Notes: a model not told the origin generated them from the letters alone. A stretch of DNA of 64,000 nt from Deltaproteobacteria bacterium (GCA_016930075.1 JAFGHS010000050.1:32872-96871), one strand, 5' to 3'; shown: positions 42,066-50,131, counted from the first letter of the stretch. Made by a program: numbers and translations.

Positions 42066-42375
42066 CTGCGCGCTCCTTTCGCCATGTCAGGTATTGTCAG
42101 TAGCAATTTTCCGTTATCGATCATGTATAAAATTTATTATCCTTAGTTATATCAATGGGAATATGTCAAGTAAAATAAGCGGGTTGTCGCATACCGATAA
42201 TGCGGCGGTTGTGAAGACTGTAAGGGATCGCCAGGGCAATGGGCAATCGGGAGTTGACGTTAATTCCCGTTGACAGATGCTTTATTTTTACCTAATCGCT
42301 CGGCGGGTTCATCGCAAAGATGCCCATCGCGAATCTTCCCTGATCCATCGTAAAACAAATTCGGAGCGTACCTTG

Positions 42376-42745
42376 ATGACCGACCGACAAGTTGAACGCA
42401 GGCTTGCTGCCATTTTCAGCGCCGACGTGAAAGGCTACAGCGGCCTCATGGGCAGGGATGAAATCGTCACCATTCGCATGCTCACCGATTACCGGGAGCG
42501 CATCTCCCATTACATTGAACGGCATAAGGGCCGTTTGATCGACGCTGCGGGCGACAACCTTCTGGCGGATTTCGGCAGTGTGGTGGATGCCGTGCATTGC
42601 GCCGTCGAAGCCAGAAAGAAATCAGCGAAGTCCTGCGGATCGAACCGGCCCTTACGCTTGCCCTTATCGAGAAGACCCGTCCCAGCGGAAACAAGGATTA
42701 TTCGTTCGATTCATGGAAGCCCTGAAAAAAGCAGGGCTCAAGTGA
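42376..42745 (+). pseudogene. Remnant of a class III adenylate/guanylate cyclase gene (internal deletion plus frameshifts)
   Basis: MTDRQVERRLAAIFSADVKGYSGLMGRDEIVTIRMLTDYRERISHYIERHKGRLIDAAGDNLLADFGSVVDAVHCAVE is the first ~80 aa of a cyclase homology domain. Similarity then stops. Other frames encode LRIEPALTLA (TPR-like) and ...PYREDPSQRKQGLFVRFMEALKKAGLK* (stop 42743-42745), which resembles the usual C-terminus of cyclase-TPR proteins. Confidence 0.5.
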
Positions 42746-42777
42746 CGTGGTTCAGGGATAAAAAACGGTATGATGTG

Positions 42778-42966
42778 TTACATCTTTGACTTTATTCCGA
42801 GGTCTTTGAATATTTTCCCGGCGAGGTGATCATTAATCTCCGGATGTCTGGGCATGGATGAACGTTTGTTTTGATCAGGATTCCACCACCAAGAATGGCT
42901 GCCGCCTTCTCTCAGCAATTCACACCCTTGTGAGCGCAGGCATTTCAGCAAGTCTTTTCGCTTCAT
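42778..42966 (-). CDS. hicA: Type II toxin HicA (mRNA interferase)
   Basis: 62 aa. LLKCLRSQGCELLREGGSHSWWWNP fits the HicA/YcfA dsRBD-like fold with the catalytic GSH. ATGA overlap with the upstream hicB. Confidence 0.8.
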   Translation of the reverse strand: MKRKDLLKCLRSQGCELLREGGSHSWWWNPDQNKRSSMPRHPEINDHLAGKIFKDLGIKSKM

Positions 42967-43175
42967 ATAGCGATTTTTTCTTCCTTATACCCGGATTTTA
43001 AAGCGGCAAGCGCATCCTGTCGATTAAATTCAAGCGCTTCTTGCAAAGTTACTTTGAGGCTTTTTAATAATTCCTCATGGGTTGGCTCCTGGCAGTTAAC
43101 ACCGGGCACTTCTTCAATCCATCCTATCCACCAGTTTCCATCCTGTTTTATAACCGCTGTATATTCTTTGTTCAT
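42963..43175 (-). CDS. hicB: Type II antitoxin HicB (short form without an obvious DNA-binding domain)
   Basis: 70 aa. YTAVIKQDGNWWIGWIEEVPGVNCQEPTHEELLKSLKVTLQEALEF matches the HicB/UPF0150 N-terminal fold. Confidence 0.75.
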   Translation of the reverse strand: MNKEYTAVIKQDGNWWIGWIEEVPGVNCQEPTHEELLKSLKVTLQEALEFNRQDALAALKSGYKEEKIAI

Positions 43176-43519: not shown

Positions 43520-44122
43520 TTACTTATTTTCTGTCGGCTGGGCCACCGGCTGCGCTGCCGGCTGATCTGCCGGTTGGGCCTTCCCGCCGTCAAATTTCAT
43601 TGCCTTGACGGCCTCTTCCATTTTGGCAATTTGCGCCGACAACTCTTCGATTTTCGCCTTCGTCTTGTCCAGGCCGGCCTGAATATCAATTTTGTCTGCC
43701 TGCACCTTTAATTTCTTGACTTGCAGATCGGACCTCAGTTTGGCATTGGCCTCTTTGCTTTTTCCCAGGCCGCATTTGTCGATGGCTTCGATTTTCACGA
43801 CATCATAGGCCAGTGATGACACTTTGCGATAGTTTTCGGCCATGTCTTTTTCATATTCGGCGTACTTTTTTTGCGCGCTTGCCCGCTCCGTTTTTAATTC
43901 AGCCAGTTGCAGTTTATCCGATGCAACTTGCAACTCATATTCCGCTTCTGCAAATCCTTCGCGTTTATCCGCGGGCACCTGGTTGACCAAAGCAGGATCA
44001 ACATTAGATGTGATTAAGGCAATCTTATCAGAAGTGGTTTCCTTGACTTTGTCAATCCATCCCGCCTGTGCGGTTGCTGCAAAAATCAGTACAGATGCCA
44101 ATGCCATAATGATCTTTTTCAT
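43520..44122 (-). CDS. Secreted coiled-coil protein of unknown function
   Basis: ATG 44122 has an AAGGAGG RBS and a signal peptide MKKIIMALASVLIFAATAQA. Lys/Glu/Ala-rich heptad-like sequence follows, then the C-terminal repeat QPADQPAAQPVAQP. Confidence 0.5.
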   Translation of the reverse strand: MKKIIMALASVLIFAATAQAGWIDKVKETTSDKIALITSNVDPALVNQVPADKREGFAEAEYELQVASDKLQLAELKTERASAQKKYAEYEKDMAENYRKVSSLAYDVVKIEAIDKCGLGKSKEANAKLRSDLQVKKLKVQADKIDIQAGLDKTKAKIEELSAQIAKMEEAVKAMKFDGGKAQPADQPAAQPVAQPTENK

Positions 44123-44342
44123 GTTTGCCTCCTTCCAAAATAGGTTCGAATTTTTCATTGCTTAAGAAATTTATAGTGTAGGTGATCGGGAATGTCAAGG
44201 GCGCAGGAGTTTATCAAGACTCCATTCAGCCCCCGGCAACCGGTCCCGCCCTGAACCACCTGTAAGGCCGGTTCTATTAATCATTGAATTTACGGCATGA
44301 GCCTGTTAAAAGACAGGCAGCCCTTTAAGAAGGAGAAGATCA

Positions 44343-45683
44343 TTGGAACTTAAACGCCAGCTTGGATTGCCGACCGCCATATTCATCATCATTGCCGATG
44401 TTATCGGTACGGGGATTTTCATGACGACCGGAAACGTCCTCGGCATTACGGGAAGCGCCGCGGCGACGCTTGCCTTATGGGCCGTGGGCGGCCTCGTCGC
44501 TCTCACGGGGGCTCTGTGTTATGCGGAACTGGCCACCCTCTGGCCCGACGACGGCGGCGAATATGTTTATCTTAAAAAAATATTCGGCCTCCTGCCGGCC
44601 TTTCTGACCGGCTGGATCTCCCTGGTCGTCGCTTTTTCCGCCGCCGCCGCTCTGTCGTCCATGACCCTGGTTTTATATCTCAACGAACTATGGCCGAACG
44701 GACCCCTGTCCGGAATATGGGCGCAGAAGATCACGGCCGCGGCGATCATCTGCTGTTTCGGAGTCCTGCACATCACCGGCGTGAGGCGCGGCAGCTTTAT
44801 CCAGAATTTTCTGACGGTCTTCAAGATCATGATTGTTTTTTCCATCATTGTCTTCGGCCTGGCCCTGGCCGACTGGGGCGAGGTCGGAAGGCTCGCGGCG
44901 GATTATCCGTCAGCGGACAAAAACGTTTTCCATTTCGGATTTCCCCTTCTGCTGATCATGTTTGCCTATTCCGGATGGAACGGGGCGAGCTACATGGCCG
45001 GTGAAATCAAAAACCCGCAAAAAAACCTCCCCCGTGCCATGCTTTCGGCGACCGTGATCATTACCGTCCTCTACCTGCTGTTAAACGTCGTCTATCTCAT
45101 CTCGACGCCCGGCGAAGGGCTGATGGGGAAAACGGCTGTCGGCGCCATCGCGACGGGAAATCTTTTCGGGCCGCGTTTTTCACCCCTGTTCACCCTTGGC
45201 ATCGCGTTTATTCTGCTGACGTCCGTCTCGGTGCAGATGATGATCGGCCCCCGCGTCTATTACGCCATGGCCAGGGACGGCATGATCTTTAAATCTCTCA
45301 AAAAGGTGAGCCCGCGCTTCGGAACGCCCCATGTGGCCATCATCACCCAGATGATCATTGCGGCGGCGTATGTCTTTATCGGCAGGGAGAGCATCGAAAC
45401 GCTCCAGGCGTTTATGGGGTTTGCCCTCGGTTTTTTCCCGCTCCTTACCGTTTCAGGGCTCGTCATCGTGCGCTACAGGCATCCGGAAATGGAGAGCCCT
45501 TACCGGACGCCTTTTTTCCCTCTCGTCCCCTTGATCTATATCACCCTGACGGCCGCCATGATGGTGTCCGCGCTTTTCACCTGGACGACAACGTCTCTGT
45601 TTGCCGTCGGCGTCTGCCTTGCGGGCGTCATCGTATTTTTTATCTGGCAGAAATGGTTGGGACAAAAGACCCCTGCGGGATAG
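44343..45683 (+). CDS. APC-superfamily amino acid permease
   Basis: 446 aa with ~12 TM segments. The N-terminal LKRQLGLPTAIFIIIADVIGTGIF is typical of the family. TTG start as in the track. Confidence 0.85.
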   Translation: MELKRQLGLPTAIFIIIADVIGTGIFMTTGNVLGITGSAAATLALWAVGGLVALTGALCYAELATLWPDDGGEYVYLKKIFGLLPAFLTGWISLVVAFSAAAALSSMTLVLYLNELWPNGPLSGIWAQKITAAAIICCFGVLHITGVRRGSFIQNFLTVFKIMIVFSIIVFGLALADWGEVGRLAADYPSADKNVFHFGFPLLLIMFAYSGWNGASYMAGEIKNPQKNLPRAMLSATVIITVLYLLLNVVYLISTPGEGLMGKTAVGAIATGNLFGPRFSPLFTLGIAFILLTSVSVQMMIGPRVYYAMARDGMIFKSLKKVSPRFGTPHVAIITQMIIAAAYVFIGRESIETLQAFMGFALGFFPLLTVSGLVIVRYRHPEMESPYRTPFFPLVPLIYITLTAAMMVSALFTWTTTSLFAVGVCLAGVIVFFIWQKWLGQKTPAG

Positions 45684-46133
45684 GTTTCAGGCGCCGGGAC
45701 ATGCGCATCGGTTGCTGTTCCCTCCGCGGCGCAAAAGTCCGTGATTAAAGACATATCCTGATCCCATCACCCATAAACGGCGATCTGATTCGTGATTTCC
45801 CGCCGTGAAGGGGTCTTTTCTTTTCTTGACAAGGCCGGACGGTCTATACTAAACGGTAAGTACAGCGCCGCGGCTTTACTCCAGAATCACTTTGAAATTC
45901 GGTAATTACAAATAACCACATAAACAGGAGGGTGTTGAGATATGGGGGGGGACTGCTTGAAGGCGCCACCGTTCTGGATTTTTCGGATTATATTGCGGTT
46001 CCTTACCGCGGGAGAGCACAGCGCCGAGGTCCTTGCACAGTTCGGGTACGGTCCGGGGGAGATCGAAGAGTTTAAAAACAGGCCGTCATCCGATAGGACG
46101 GTCGTTCATACGGATGGAGCGCCAAAGGAGTCT

Positions 46134-47003
46134 ATGATGAAAAAAATTGCCGCCCTTGTGTTCATGTTCATGCTGCTTGCCGCCGGGCCGCTTCTGGCGG
46201 TGCAATCGACCATTCTTGATGTCGAAGGCAAAGCCTGCATGGGAGACGACAAATCGAGAAAACAGACGGAGCAGGCGGCCATGACCGACGCCAAAAGAAC
46301 TGCTGCGGAACGGGCGTTGACCTACGTCAAGAGCGAAACCCAGGTCAAGGATATGGCCGTCGAAAAAGACCTTGTCAATGCGTATTCGCGGGCGACCGTC
46401 AAGGTCGTCGAGGAGCTTGATAAAGCCTGGTATAAAGATGCGGACGCCGGCAACTGCTATCGCATAAAGATCAGGGCGGAGATTGTTCCCGATGAGCAGA
46501 TGCTGGCCAAGGCCGCCGATGTCAAAGGTCTGGCCGATGATCCGGGGGCGCCGCTTGCCGTAAAGCTCTGGACCGACAAGTCCGAATACAAGCAAGGAGA
46601 AACGGTCAAGATATATATCAAGGGGAATAAACCCTTTCACGCCCGTCTCCTGTATAAGGATGCGGCAGGACAGATGCTGCAGCTGCTGCCCAACCCCTAC
46701 CGCAGCGAAGATTATTTCAACGGCGGCGTCATCTATGAAATCCCCTCGACGCAAGACCGCTTTGAATTGGAGGTATCGCCCCCTTTCGGCCGGGAGGATA
46801 TTGTGGTCTATGCCGGCACAGCGCCCCTGGGGGAGATCAGACTGAAGGCCGGGAAAAATGATCCCGTGTATCAGGTTGTGTCCAAATCGGATGATTTGCC
46901 CCGGCTGACGAGGGGCATCAAGATTAAGGAGAAGACCTCCGGCGGCAAGGATTTGCCGTCGGAATTTTACGAACAGACCTTAACCATCAAAACCTCCCGG
47001 TGA
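46134..47003 (+). CDS. Exported DUF4384 domain protein
   Basis: ATG 46134 has an AAAGGAG RBS and a signal peptide MMKKIAALVFMFMLLAAGPLLA. The C-terminal half (LAVKLWTDKSEYKQGETVKIYIKGNKPFHARLLYKDAAGQMLQLLPN...FELEVSPPFGREDIVVYA) fits the DUF4384 beta-sandwich pattern. The upstream 64 codons of the track ORF are probably not translated. Confidence 0.7.
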   Translation: MMKKIAALVFMFMLLAAGPLLAVQSTILDVEGKACMGDDKSRKQTEQAAMTDAKRTAAERALTYVKSETQVKDMAVEKDLVNAYSRATVKVVEELDKAWYKDADAGNCYRIKIRAEIVPDEQMLAKAADVKGLADDPGAPLAVKLWTDKSEYKQGETVKIYIKGNKPFHARLLYKDAAGQMLQLLPNPYRSEDYFNGGVIYEIPSTQDRFELEVSPPFGREDIVVYAGTAPLGEIRLKAGKNDPVYQVVSKSDDLPRLTRGIKIKEKTSGGKDLPSEFYEQTLTIKTSR

Positions 47004-47065
47004 TGTTGAGAGTCATGTTGAAAAAAAAGGTAAACGCGACCCCCTTTAAAGGATGGAGCCGAATC

Positions 47066-49417
47066 ATGATAAAGCCGACGTATTGCAATTCTGAAAGAAA
47101 ACAGTCCCTTTTTCACCGGGTGCGAATCCTGTGTCTCTTTTGCCTAATCGTTTTTCTCATCGGCGGGTGCGGCGCGGGGATGGTTCAGGACATGAAAACC
47201 AATATTGAAGACATCAAAATCAGTTCGCTCATGCAGAAAAAGCAGCACCATGAACTGATCCGCACCCTCCAGCCTGCGCTGGACAAAAACGAACCGTTGT
47301 CTTCTTTCCGCACGTTCCTTCTCGCAGCGGCATACTATGAAATCCGCGACTACGAAAAAATGTTCAGGACGGCGGATTTGCTGGAACGCCAAATCGGGAA
47401 AGGGGATGTCGCCGGGTACGGCGGGAATCTCTCCGTTTATCCGTATACATTGCGGGGTTTCGCCTATCTTGACCAGGGGGTTTTCGACAAGGCCCTGGCG
47501 GAAGCGTCAAAAGCCGCCGTCATCCTTGATCGCGACGCAAAGAATGACAACACCTTCTATCGAACGCAGCTCATCGACATCTCCTGCATCGCCGGAATCG
47601 CTTCGGCCGAGGCCGGACGCATGAAGGACGCCGACAGACACATCAAAACCATCGAAGATGTGACGACTATCGGCGGCATTCTGGGTCCGGAAAAATATGT
47701 CGCCTTGGCCAGGATACACATGGCCAAACGGGATTATCAAAGCGCTCTATCCGCTGTTCAGAATCCGCGTGCCGGCGTCCTGGGCCTTTATACGGTCTTT
47801 TACGATCAAACCTTTCAGGAACTCCCCAAATATTTCATCCTCGTCAAGTGCCTCTATGAAACGGGCAAAGTGGAAGAGGCGAAAAAAGGCTACGATCAAC
47901 TCCTCGGCCATCCCCAGATGCGGCAGATCGGGGGGCTTCTGTGGCCCGCGCTTCTCGACCGGGCCCGCATCGCCCGCCGCGAGGGTGACGTGAAACGGGC
48001 CGAAGAGCTTTTAAAAGAGGCTGTTGAGGTTATCGAAAAGCAGCGGGCGTCCATCAATACGGAAACGGGCAGGATCGGCTATGTCGGCGACAAGCAGGAT
48101 GTCTACCGGGAACTGATTGCCCTGCTCTGCGGCGGCAACCGTGCGGCGGAGGCCTTTGAATACGTCGAACGGGCGAAGGGACGGGCCCTCGTGGACCTGC
48201 TGGCGGCCCAGACGAAGATCGCCGTCCGCGGAAAGAATGCGGAAAATATCGACCGGACCCTCAGCCGTTTGACCGATGCCGAAAAGGCAAGCGCCACAGT
48301 GGCCGATGTGAAAATGCCCGGCGATGTTGCCGGAACCCGCGGCGTTGTTTTAAAACTGAAAAAAGAACTTCAGGCCCAGGACCCGGAACTGGCTTCCATC
48401 ACGACGGTCACGGACACGGATGTCAAATCCATTCAGTCGCGCCTGAACGCCGATGAGTCGATCCTGGAATATTTCGAAACAGACGAAGCGTGGTATGCCT
48501 TCGTTCTTTCCCGAAACCACATCCGGGTCACCGCCATCAACGGGGCCGGTCTGGCGGACGATGTAGCGGATTTCCGGCAAAAGCTGACACGAGCCGGCAA
48601 AACGGATTATATGGCCCGTGCAAAAGCACTCTATGGAAAGCTCTTTGCACCGGTGGCGGGGCAGTTGGCCACGCCCAGACTGATCATCGTTCCCCACGGC
48701 GTCCTCCATTACCTCCCCTTCAACGCTCTCCATTCCGGGAAGGAATTCCTCCTTGACCGCTATCAGCTGAGAATTCTGCCCAGCGCAAGCATTCTCGGCA
48801 TATTGGCAGACAGGGCCGGAACGGGCAGGCGCTCGGCCCTCATCATGGGCAATCCGGATTTGAAGAATCCGTCCCTCGACCTGAAATATGCGGGACAGGA
48901 GGCCATCGCCCTGGGCAAGATCATTCCGCAGGCAACGGTCCTTTTGAGAAACAACGCCCGGGCCGACGTGATTCGTGATAAAGGCCATCAATACGGCATC
49001 CTTCATTTCGCCGTCCACGGCGTCTTTGATGCGGAAAATCCCCTCAACTCCGCCCTTCTTCTTGCCGGAAACGGGTCGGGTCAGGGCCTTCTTAAGGCGG
49101 GAGATCTCTATCAGCTCCGTTTGAACAGCGACCTGATTACTTTAAGCGCCTGTGAAACGGCCTTAAGCGTCATATCCAAAGGGGACGACGTCATCGGTTT
49201 TACAAGGGGGTTTCTCTACGCCGGGGCGCGATCCATTGTTTCAAGCCTCTGGCAGGTGGATGACGAGGCAACGCGGGACTTGATGGTGGGCTTCTACCAG
49301 CGGCTTCCCCGAATGGACAACGATAAGGCCCTCAGGGAGGCCCAGTTACAGGTCAAAAAGGGCCGGCCTCACCCCTTTTACTGGGCGGCTTTTCAATTGA
49401 CGGGTCTGCCGAAATAG
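47066..49417 (+). CDS. TPR-repeat CHAT-domain (caspase-like) protease, predicted lipoprotein
   Basis: ATG 47066 (GGATGGAG RBS) gives MIKPTYCNSERKQSLFHRVRILCLFCLIVFLIGGC, with a lipobox-like IGGC. The central region has TPR-like helices. The C-terminal CHAT domain has the His/Cys dyad contexts LHFAVHG and LTLSACETA, then SLWQVDD and HPFYWAAFQLTG. Confidence 0.85.
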   Translation: MIKPTYCNSERKQSLFHRVRILCLFCLIVFLIGGCGAGMVQDMKTNIEDIKISSLMQKKQHHELIRTLQPALDKNEPLSSFRTFLLAAAYYEIRDYEKMFRTADLLERQIGKGDVAGYGGNLSVYPYTLRGFAYLDQGVFDKALAEASKAAVILDRDAKNDNTFYRTQLIDISCIAGIASAEAGRMKDADRHIKTIEDVTTIGGILGPEKYVALARIHMAKRDYQSALSAVQNPRAGVLGLYTVFYDQTFQELPKYFILVKCLYETGKVEEAKKGYDQLLGHPQMRQIGGLLWPALLDRARIARREGDVKRAEELLKEAVEVIEKQRASINTETGRIGYVGDKQDVYRELIALLCGGNRAAEAFEYVERAKGRALVDLLAAQTKIAVRGKNAENIDRTLSRLTDAEKASATVADVKMPGDVAGTRGVVLKLKKELQAQDPELASITTVTDTDVKSIQSRLNADESILEYFETDEAWYAFVLSRNHIRVTAINGAGLADDVADFRQKLTRAGKTDYMARAKALYGKLFAPVAGQLATPRLIIVPHGVLHYLPFNALHSGKEFLLDRYQLRILPSASILGILADRAGTGRRSALIMGNPDLKNPSLDLKYAGQEAIALGKIIPQATVLLRNNARADVIRDKGHQYGILHFAVHGVFDAENPLNSALLLAGNGSGQGLLKAGDLYQLRLNSDLITLSACETALSVISKGDDVIGFTRGFLYAGARSIVSSLWQVDDEATRDLMVGFYQRLPRMDNDKALREAQLQVKKGRPHPFYWAAFQLTGLPK

Positions 49418-49429
49418 AAGGGAAACCGG

Positions 49430-50131
49430 TCATATCCCCTCGAAGAGGTATTCGACGGAATCCAGCTTTTCCTCAATAGCCAAACTCAATATTTTGGAAA
49501 AGGTGTCGAGGATGACGATGGCGTTGCTGTTGGCCTCCGCCTTTTTATTCGTCTTGATGACCCTGGCAATACGCCTGCACATGGCTTCATTCAGCCGCTC
49601 GACGTTCCGGTAGGCCCGATTCAGTCCGTCGAGGGAAATGTCCGGTTTTCCGCCTTTTTTGGCGATGAAATACTGGGACATCAGGTACATGGACGCTGAA
49701 CGGATGACGGTTTCCTGGGAAGTGGAAAAAGGCAGATGGAACCGGGCCATGGGTTTGAGAAAATCCATGACCGGACAATTGCTGGTTGCCATAATGATGC
49801 CGAGAATGGAGGCGATGGCCCGCTGGGCCGGCGCCTCCTTAAAATAAGTCCGTTCCTTGGTTTCAACGGTGATCTTCATCATCTCTATGGACTGCATTTC
49901 TTTGAAGCATTCGACGAGGCCTGCGATATTCACGGCGATCGGGCAGTACGGATGTCCGTCGCTTTCAAGCGGGCAGACGTCGCAGCGGCAATTGTCCAGT
50001 TCTGTCCACGCGGGCGGTTCCCCCTGCTCCTTGACGATGAGAGAATTCGTCGCGCTGTCGATGACGATGGGATACGTTATCGATGTCCCGTTTGACATTT
50101 CAAAGGTATAGTTAATTTGGATATTATCCAT
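49430..50131 (-). CDS. Hypothetical protein with a CxCxxC-x9-C motif
   Basis: 233 aa with no family I can name. It contains DNCRCDVCPLESDGHPYCP and three further Cys. It is convergent with the CHAT gene (12-nt gap) and lies downstream of, and on the same strand as, the carboxylase. Confidence 0.5.
   Translation of the reverse strand: MDNIQINYTFEMSNGTSITYPIVIDSATNSLIVKEQGEPPAWTELDNCRCDVCPLESDGHPYCPIAVNIAGLVECFKEMQSIEMMKITVETKERTYFKEAPAQRAIASILGIIMATSNCPVMDFLKPMARFHLPFSTSQETVIRSASMYLMSQYFIAKKGGKPDISLDGLNRAYRNVERLNEAMCRRIARVIKTNKKAEANSNAIVILDTFSKILSLAIEEKLDSVEYLFEGI

Follow-up and report, generated by a model that had tools for sequence, protein, structure and literature searches.

Why should a secreted DUF4384 protein and a TPR-CHAT protein of the caspase fold be encoded side by side in a deltaproteobacterial genome? 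The question is raised by two genes at positions 46134–49417 of a 64,000-nucleotide (nt) stretch of DNA from Deltaproteobacteria bacterium (GCA_016930075.1 JAFGHS010000050.1:32872-96871), hereafter the window, within which all coordinates are counted; gene 1 encodes the DUF4384 protein and gene 2 the TPR-CHAT protein. A preliminary description had taken the two for an exported module, possibly an envelope-located protease with a dedicated substrate or adaptor. We propose, with moderate confidence, that they form an envelope protease system in which the DUF4384 protein is a non-catalytic binding or regulatory subunit of a lipid-anchored TPR-CHAT protease. The comparison of loci gives good support to the view that gene 1 is functionally linked to exported proteases of the caspase fold, with the CHAT family of gene 2 as one of the partners, because adjacency recurs with four protease types, both gene orders occur, and whole proteins are found fused. 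Caspase-fold proteases are abundant in bacteria, though few have a known partner or substrate, e.g., Csx29 with Csx30 and HetF with PatU3. The gasdermin-activating proteases are another such case.

Export signals and domains of the two products

Gene 2 (47066–49417, + strand) encodes a predicted TPR-CHAT lipoprotein of 783 amino acids (aa), with full-length homologues that are 50–78% identical and a structural model with a predicted local distance difference test score (pLDDT) of 80 and a predicted template modelling score (pTM) of 0.74. Its N-terminus, MIKPTYCNSERKQSLFHRVRILCLFCLIVFLIGG-C35, forms a lipoprotein signal peptide (47066–47170, aligned with homologues) with a positive n-region (K3, R11, K12, R18 and R20), the hydrophobic h-region ILCLFCLIVFL and the lipobox L-I-G-G-C35, the Cys codon of which lies at 47168–47170. 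The basic n-region, h-region and lipobox Cys that characterise a lipoprotein are all present, acylation being predicted from the sequence alone; the lipobox Cys pointed out earlier is confirmed, and its position is now fixed as residue 35 counted from the start at 47066. This Cys is found in 35 of the 46 aligned homologues, position −1 is Gly, Ser or Ala in all 46, and a hydrophobic h-region is present in 109 of the 111 homologues with a complete N-terminus. A minority carry Phe in place of the Cys and would be ordinary secreted or anchored proteins.

Behind the signal peptide follow a TPR-like alpha-solenoid (about aa 45–460, 47198–48445), indicated by weak TPR hits in Pfam, by the fold match and by a model that is all-helical across aa 36–457, and a CHAT caspase-fold domain (aa 518–780, 48617–49405), matched by PF12770 with an E-value (E) of 8e-71 (239 bits against a cutoff of 24) over profile positions 3–288 of 289. 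Both residues of the dyad, His651 (LHFAVH651G, codon 49016–49018) and Cys696 (LSAC696ETA, codon 49151–49153), were checked at the codon level and are invariant in alignments of 20 and 46 sequences, and a profile search of the PDB lined them up with the HG and aCET motifs of Csx29, so that the dyad is complete as previously claimed and shows no misalignment. The association of a solenoid with a CHAT domain, as in Csx29 and separase, is likewise found in gene 2, in the predicted structure (AlphaFold and Foldseek). Gene 2 is proposed to be a lipid-anchored TPR-CHAT cysteine protease, the protease activity being a prediction from sequence and model, and the combination of lipoprotein signal, TPR-like array and CHAT domain given in the preliminary description is borne out.

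Gene 1 (46134–47003, + strand, with a start possibly at ATG 46137) encodes a predicted secreted protein of 289 aa, recognised from its open reading frame (ORF), homologues and Pfam as a DUF4384 protein, with a putatively Lpp20/FlgO-like domain in front. The Sec-type signal peptide (aa 1–22, 46134–46199), MMKKIAALVFMFMLLAAGPLLA followed by VQST, consists of MMKK, a hydrophobic core and LLA, after which cleavage is predicted, and the junction A/xQST is kept in 40 aligned homologues. The N-terminal alpha/beta domain (aa 24–120, 46203–46493) is modelled with pLDDT 84–94 over most of its length; it has no Pfam match at E up to 1 and weakly matches Lpp20 of H. pylori (5ok8) in Foldseek (E 2.7e-3, template modelling (TM) score 0.45). 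A Lpp20/FlgO-like reading of this domain is supported by a relative (P0242) that combines a CsgG/FlgO-type N-domain with a DUF4384 domain 69% identical to that of gene 1. Cys35 and Cys108 of the N-domain are invariant in the 40-homologue alignment, which would fit an oxidising compartment.

The DUF4384 beta-sandwich follows at aa 151–230 (46584–46823), where PF14326 matches with E 2.7e-23 (82 bits against a cutoff of 27) over profile positions 1–80 of 81; the domain also has a weak Foldseek match to the MG2 domain of alpha2-macroglobulin (2p9r, E 6e-3, TM 0.53, 24% identity). The C-terminal tail (aa 238–289, 46845–47000) carries TRG and SEFxEE motifs and then a terminal strand, with the conserved columns R260, G261, E277, F278 and E280, and aa 238–274 are modelled with pLDDT below 50; judging from the low-confidence model and the conserved columns, the tail is probably flexible and is a candidate interaction or cleavage site. 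In the AlphaFold model as a whole (mean pLDDT 67), the N-domain and parts of the DUF4384 sandwich are confident. The signal peptide, the N-domain of about 110 aa and the DUF4384 domain attributed earlier to this product are all recovered, and since the export signals of both genes are kept in their homologues, so is the prediction that both products are extracytoplasmic.

The two ORFs, both on the + strand, extend over 45942–47003 and 47000–49417. For gene 1, a start at 46134 or 46137 is favoured over ATG 45942 because nearly all of the best 120 homologues (57–77% identical) are 283–291 aa long and begin with MK; a Shine-Dalgarno-like AAGGAG (46125–46130), read from the sequence, is separated from ATG 46134 by 3 nt and from ATG 46137 by 6 nt. 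For gene 2, GTG 47000, which overlaps the gene 1 stop codon (47001–47003) by 4 nt, and ATG 47003 are both disfavoured: homologue N-termini align to ATG 47066, which is preceded at 7 nt by a GGAG ribosome-binding site (47055–47058, read from the sequence) and leaves a 62-nt gap after gene 1. They fit the start at 47066 together with the lipoprotein signal, and not a start at GTG 47000 devoid of a signal peptide. Co-directional genes with a 4-nt overlap of their ORFs and, with the proposed starts, a gap of at most 62 nt, as described before, are indeed what the ORFs and start codons give. The NCBI record of the same 101-kb contig, part of a metagenome-assembled genome, appears to have mis-set both starts: its DUF4384 protein, called from ATG 45942, is 353 aa long, i.e., about 64 aa too long, and its CHAT protein of 741 aa begins with MKTNIEDIK, after the signal peptide, so that the lipoprotein signal is lost.

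The two genes are probably co-transcribed, because they are co-directional, the 62-nt gap contains no terminator-like site, and the next downstream gene, encoding a DUF6901 protein (49430–50131), is convergent with the pair; a two-gene transcription unit is plausible from this arrangement. The upstream amino-acid permease gene ends 450 nt before gene 1. Under the rules of the tool, no sigma-70-like site was found on the + strand and no terminator-like site in the gap, in a scan that is uninformative, the number of sites being near the shuffle expectation. A regulatory RNA upstream of gene 1 was looked for as well, and there was no Rfam match at E up to 1 in 45500–47200; the 450-nt region upstream of gene 1 folds no more stably than shuffled sequence (z = 0.85).

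Neighbours and fusions of gene 1 and gene 2 orthologues

Orthologues of gene 1 that are 53–73% identical were collected from 83 loci, which form 67 clusters after dereplication at 95% identity, and pairing was counted in the local neighbourhood of each locus. A caspase-fold gene was found in the flanks of 29 of the 83 loci, within 400 bp in 26 of them; among loci with at least 1.5 kb on both sides the count is 16 of 39, and after dereplication such a gene, adjacent or elsewhere in the flank, is still present in 26 of the 67 clusters. Nearly all the caspase-fold genes in the 10-kb flanks are immediate neighbours, which stand on either side of gene 1 and nearly always on the same strand. Four neighbour architectures were observed: Peptidase_C14 with FGE-sulfatase, WD40 with Peptidase_C14, C14 alone, and TPR with CHAT of other subfamilies. 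Wherever the N-terminus of such a neighbour is on the contig, a signal peptide or lipobox is present. An unfused WD40-C14 gene follows gene 1 in three loci (L113, L158 and L164) and precedes it in another (L129).

For the gene 2 family itself, pairs with a gene-1 orthologue were found at seven independent loci, i.e., the window, L084, L168, L171, L169, L167 and L027. Targeted look-ups gave the order DUF4384 then CHAT in L084, L168, L171 and L169. The order is reversed in L027, a locus of a genome with a low guanine-cytosine content, where the CHAT gene, the product of which is 37% identical to that of gene 2, comes before the DUF4384 gene with a gap of 62 nt. In L167 (3382–8295), one strand carries, in this order, genes for an orthologue of the DUF4384 protein (283 aa), a protein with Peptidase_C14 (487 aa) and a TPR-CHAT orthologue (764 aa), one DUF4384 protein thereby being encoded with two different caspase-fold proteases. 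These recurrent pairs, and the adjacency of gene-1 orthologues to exported caspase-fold genes, make a functional link between gene 1 and gene 2 plausible, as had been supposed from the window.

Fusions connect the same parts within one polypeptide. A search for the DUF4384 domain in 1.8 billion representative proteins gave 1,314 matches at E up to 0.001. Of these, 39 exceed 340 aa in length; Peptidase_C14 is present in five of the 39, as expected from the earlier remark that DUF4384 is fused to caspase-type domains, and a Ser/Thr kinase in three. Three of the five with Peptidase_C14 have a gene-1-like part followed by WD40 and C14. In two of these (P0257, 1472 aa, and P0259, 1412 aa) the entire gene-1-like protein, from signal peptide to tail, precedes WD40 and C14 and is 45–49% identical over aa 4–289; the third, P0254, is a similar fusion truncated at its N-terminus, and together the three proteins span 1256–1472 aa. 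As the two members of the P0257 cluster were seen on four contigs of independent origin (JGI, Logan and ENA), an assembly artefact is unlikely. Other DUF4384 relatives combine a Ser/Thr kinase, PEGA and DUF4384, and in one protein of 504 aa (P0250), TIR stands at the N-terminus and DUF4384 at the C-terminus, together with two PASTA domains. In the kinases and the TIR-PASTA protein, DUF4384 occupies the C-terminal, presumably extracytoplasmic part, which suits a binding or sensing module and suggests that this is what the domain may be.

On the CHAT side, 84 loci with relatives of gene 2 were sampled (L001–L083 and the window; two exact look-ups and one genome scan), and neighbour clustering recovered no other conserved neighbour around the close CHAT orthologues or around the pairs. 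Several other arrangements were seen. Small PEP-CTERM (exosortase-sorting) proteins are encoded a few genes upstream of the CHAT gene or the pair in two cases (L001, 9113–9418; L169, 2080–2727), which may be coincidence. Distant CHAT relatives from Pyrinomonadaceae and Chloroflexota (L071–L083, 29–35% identical) lie in a conserved four-gene cluster, e.g., L079 10001–13028, made up of genes for an extracytoplasmic function (ECF)-type sigma factor, a putative anti-sigma factor that Pfam does not match, the CHAT protein, and an S8 (subtilisin-like) protease bearing a prodomain. In Betaproteobacteria (L043, L045, L049, L054, L062 and L067), the CHAT relative comes after a conserved secreted protein (e.g., L062 976–2277), about 430 aa long and unmatched in Pfam, which may be an alternative CHAT partner.

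Possible roles of the DUF4384 protein

The domains, export signals, dyad and fold, the recurrent adjacency, and the gene-1-type fusions with caspase-fold proteases are the facts from which an explanation has to start. A physical complex of the two proteins, the direction of regulation within it, its substrate and its physiological role are what we infer. Gene 2 would be a lipid-anchored TPR-CHAT cysteine protease that faces the periplasm; with Gly and not Asp at residue +2, its site is probably the outer membrane. Gene 1 would be a soluble periplasmic protein composed of the Lpp20/FlgO-like domain, the DUF4384 beta-sandwich and the flexible conserved tail, and it could bind the protease, most likely at the TPR solenoid. 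As a subunit it would recognise an envelope ligand or target and gate the His651/Cys696 site, and may itself be cut, in its flexible linker or tail, as it does so.

Several observations weigh against this explanation. What weakens it most is that, for either gene, the majority of orthologues do not have the other as a neighbour. Only two of the 84 CHAT loci, the window and L027, have an adjacent gene-1 orthologue, in a sample that consists of best-scoring hits and is not random, and close CHAT orthologues, 76–77% identical, occur in L001 and L004 without an adjacent gene 1. The two-gene module of the preliminary description therefore fails as an obligate unit, on the 2 of 84 CHAT loci, and survives as a recurrent pairing, with seven independent loci and both gene orders. 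From the other side, most gene-1 orthologues have no protease neighbour, and about 60% of the gene-1 loci have housekeeping neighbours (pyrD/pyrK-like, MazG-like and S1-domain genes) in lineage-specific synteny. In one locus (L170, 5001–7072), the stop of a gene-1 orthologue that is 73% identical overlaps by 4 nt the start of a DUF5005/DUF4185 gene, which takes the place of a protease gene. Besides, confidence in the gene 1 model is no more than moderate (pLDDT 67), its fold matches are all weak, none reaching an E of 1e-3, and signal peptides and lipoboxes were identified by inspection and with a simple script.

The DUF4384 protein could restrain the protease instead of assisting it, as a periplasmic inhibitor or an in-trans prodomain that keeps an exported CHAT or C14 protease inactive until release, by analogy with staphostatin and staphopain or with the chagasin-type immunoglobulin (Ig)-like inhibitors of cysteine proteases. 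The best compact fold match of DUF4384 is itself an Ig-like beta-sandwich, the macroglobulin MG domain (2p9r, TM 0.53), the gene-1-like part lies N-terminal to the protease in the fusions, as prodomains do, gene 1 usually comes first in the pairs, and co-encoding would explain its tight adjacency to proteases of different families. However, the fold matches all have E above 1e-3 and beta-sandwiches are generic, DUF4384 is also found on kinases and a TIR-PASTA protein without any protease, and the many gene-1 orthologues without an adjacent protease, like the CHAT orthologues of which most lack an adjacent gene 1, would be odd if inhibition were obligatory. The very strong conservation of gene 1 (57–77% identity across orders) is also unlike that of typical inhibitor or immunity proteins. 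Inhibition thus heads the alternatives, though we consider it unlikely, and an adaptor or sensor role of gene 1 is favoured over it because DUF4384 also occurs on the kinases and the TIR-PASTA protein. Next in order, and improbable, is that the two are independent conserved envelope genes of Syntrophales-like bacteria that became adjacent by chance in some lineages. This would account for the isolation of most orthologues of each gene from the other, for the high, core-like conservation of both families among housekeeping genes, and for the lack of a third conserved gene tying the two. Chance, however, would hardly produce adjacency with four protease architectures on either side of gene 1, pairs in both gene orders in distant genomes, whole-protein fusions in independent assemblies, and caspase-fold flank genes that are nearly always immediate neighbours and not scattered.

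The lowest probability is given to an envelope-sensing defence or cell-death switch like DdvA or craspase, in which the TPR-CHAT protein would respond to a phage or another insult to the envelope, detected in the periplasm by way of the DUF4384 protein, by cleaving a substrate that signals or kills. The fold of gene 2 does resemble Csx29 and DdvA, DUF4384 occurs with TIR, the distant CHAT relatives lie in clusters with an ECF sigma factor, a putative anti-sigma factor and an S8 protease, and DdvA is a periplasmic TPR-CHAT protein that regulates defence islands (PMC11506125). Yet, within about 10 kb of the pair, the window contains no gene for a sigma factor, an anti-sigma factor or an effector, no cas gene and no NTPase gene; neither protein matches a PADLOC model, gene 2 has no anti-sigma or transmembrane signalling domain, and both the high conservation and the setting among housekeeping genes differ from what mobile defence islands show. 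The metabolic and housekeeping context, the lack of sigma, cas and PADLOC matches, and the high conservation of both families point to a core envelope function of the pair, in protein processing or surveillance, and not to a mobile defence island.

We advance only tentatively the wider idea that the conserved periplasmic Lpp20/FlgO-like and DUF4384 protein is a common non-catalytic partner of interchangeable exported proteases (TPR-CHAT lipoproteins, C14 with FGE-sulfatase, and WD40 with C14), acting as a sensor, adaptor or cleavable regulator; such a class, so far undescribed, could be widespread and would be the envelope counterpart of the Csx29–Csx30 and separase–securin logic, used for housekeeping proteolysis or surveillance and not for CRISPR (clustered regularly interspaced short palindromic repeats) defence. 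The conservation of both families in Syntrophales, Thermodesulfobacteriota and Nitrospirota suggests that their function in the envelope of these anaerobes is a core one. Were the DUF4384 protein indeed shared as a partner by exported CHAT and C14 proteases, DUF4384 would gain a role, and a large number of uncharacterised envelope caspase homologues would have a candidate interactor or substrate that can be tested.

The neighbours of the pair in the window encode the permease, the DUF6901 protein, a carboxylase, an Fe-S protein and others. The earlier statement that no cas, cyclase or NTPase genes are nearby holds for cas and NTPase genes, from the neighbouring ORFs and Pfam, and is not quite exact for cyclases, as a truncated cyclase-like ORF is found 3.3 kb upstream. 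In its middle (RRLAAIFSADVKGYSGLMG...DAAGDNLLADFGSVVDAVHCAVEA), this ORF (42277–42789, + strand, 170 aa) resembles a class III adenylate/guanylate cyclase domain, of which the N-terminal half is represented, and then ends; its only Pfam match is a weak one to the Cas10 palm (E 0.11), and by its sequence it is probably a truncated cyclase remnant. A HicAB-like pair, a divergent gene and the permease gene lie between it and the pair. The first corresponds to two small overlapping ORFs (42778–43175, − strand, 62 and 70 aa) that look by eye like HicA toxin and HicB antitoxin, and a further ORF on the − strand (43520–44158, 212 aa) encodes a protein that has a signal peptide, a coiled-coil of some length and a tail rich in Pro, Ala and Gln, and for which no significant family match was found.

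Comparison with known systems

The best full-length Foldseek match of the gene 2 model is Csx29 (8eey_B; E 5e-18, TM 0.51/0.54), followed by DdvA (8rw5 and 8rot; E 7e-12 to 9e-12) and separases (E about 1e-11). With Csx29, gene 2 shares the TPR solenoid, the CHAT domain and an aligned His-Cys dyad. Csx29, however, is cytoplasmic, bound to Cas7-11 and activated by RNA, whereas gene 2 has a lipoprotein signal and no cas genes, and the similarity of the two sequences is confined to the CHAT core (E 4e-4). An assignment of gene 2 to Csx29 was rejected, as NCBIfam NF041237 scores 63 bits against a cutoff of 300 and matches the CHAT core only, and the Csx29 companions Cas7-11/gRAMP, Csx30, Csx31 and RpoE were not found among the neighbours of the pair. 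Csx30 is a substrate of the TPR-CHAT protease Csx29, and the C-terminal domains of one group of Csx30 proteins are DUF4384, which is described as often fused to proteases (Kato et al., bioRxiv 10.1101/2022.08.17.504292). This sets a precedent for a TPR-CHAT protease paired with a DUF4384-bearing protein, and by the same account DUF4384 is shared between gene 1 and that one Csx30 subgroup only. The conserved N-terminal domain of Csx30 was not found in gene 1: the gene 1 profile retrieved no PDB chain at E up to 1, though Csx30 is present in complexes such as 8eey.

DdvA is closer in its location to that predicted for gene 2. In the 2024 cryo-electron microscopy study of this Myxococcus xanthus protein, the TPR-CHAT domain is periplasmic, its His-Cys dyad is in a resting state and a three-helix active-site motif is lacking, and the authors propose for the domain a role in sensing a protein signal in the periplasm. 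DdvA further comprises a transmembrane helix and a cytoplasmic zinc-binding anti-sigma domain, works with a cognate ECF sigma factor, and controls the CBASS (cyclic oligonucleotide-based antiphage signalling system) and CRISPR loci (PMC11506125). The preliminary description placed the CHAT proteases studied until now in the cytoplasm, a view that this structure has overtaken (PMC11506125), and DdvA is the only extracytoplasmic TPR-CHAT protein that we found in the literature. An extracytoplasmic TPR-CHAT part with a His-Cys dyad is also what is predicted for gene 2, which differs in being a lipoprotein without an anti-sigma domain, a transmembrane signalling domain or a nearby sigma factor. 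As a DdvA-type anti-sigma factor gene 2 was rejected: the 20 residues before the h-region and lipobox leave no room for such a domain, and there is no adjacent ECF sigma gene. The ECF sigma clusters, which recall the sigma/anti-sigma wiring of DdvA, appear only with the distant CHAT relatives (L071–L083).

Separase resembles gene 2 in combining an alpha-solenoid with a CHAT caspase-fold domain and in being regulated by a bound partner, securin; it differs as a eukaryotic, nuclear or cytoplasmic and much larger protein with no export signal and no DUF4384 partner. Orthocaspases and metacaspases (Peptidase_C14) have the same caspase fold, and exported C14 proteins stand beside gene-1 orthologues in the position of gene 2. 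DUF4384 is a known accessory domain of bacterial orthocaspases and metacaspases (PMC7475262), and surveys of prokaryotic metacaspases have noted signal peptides, extracellular members and fusions with FGE-sulfatase (PMC3501461). These reports, however, concern domains fused within one polypeptide and not a separate DUF4384 partner, and in the accessible portions of the literature that mentions DUF4384 we found no description of a free-standing Lpp20-like and DUF4384 protein as a recurrent neighbour of exported C14 or CHAT proteins. Extracytoplasmic caspase-fold proteins are not new in themselves; what appears to be new here is a predicted lipoprotein of the TPR-CHAT type with a recurrent, putatively secreted DUF4384 partner.

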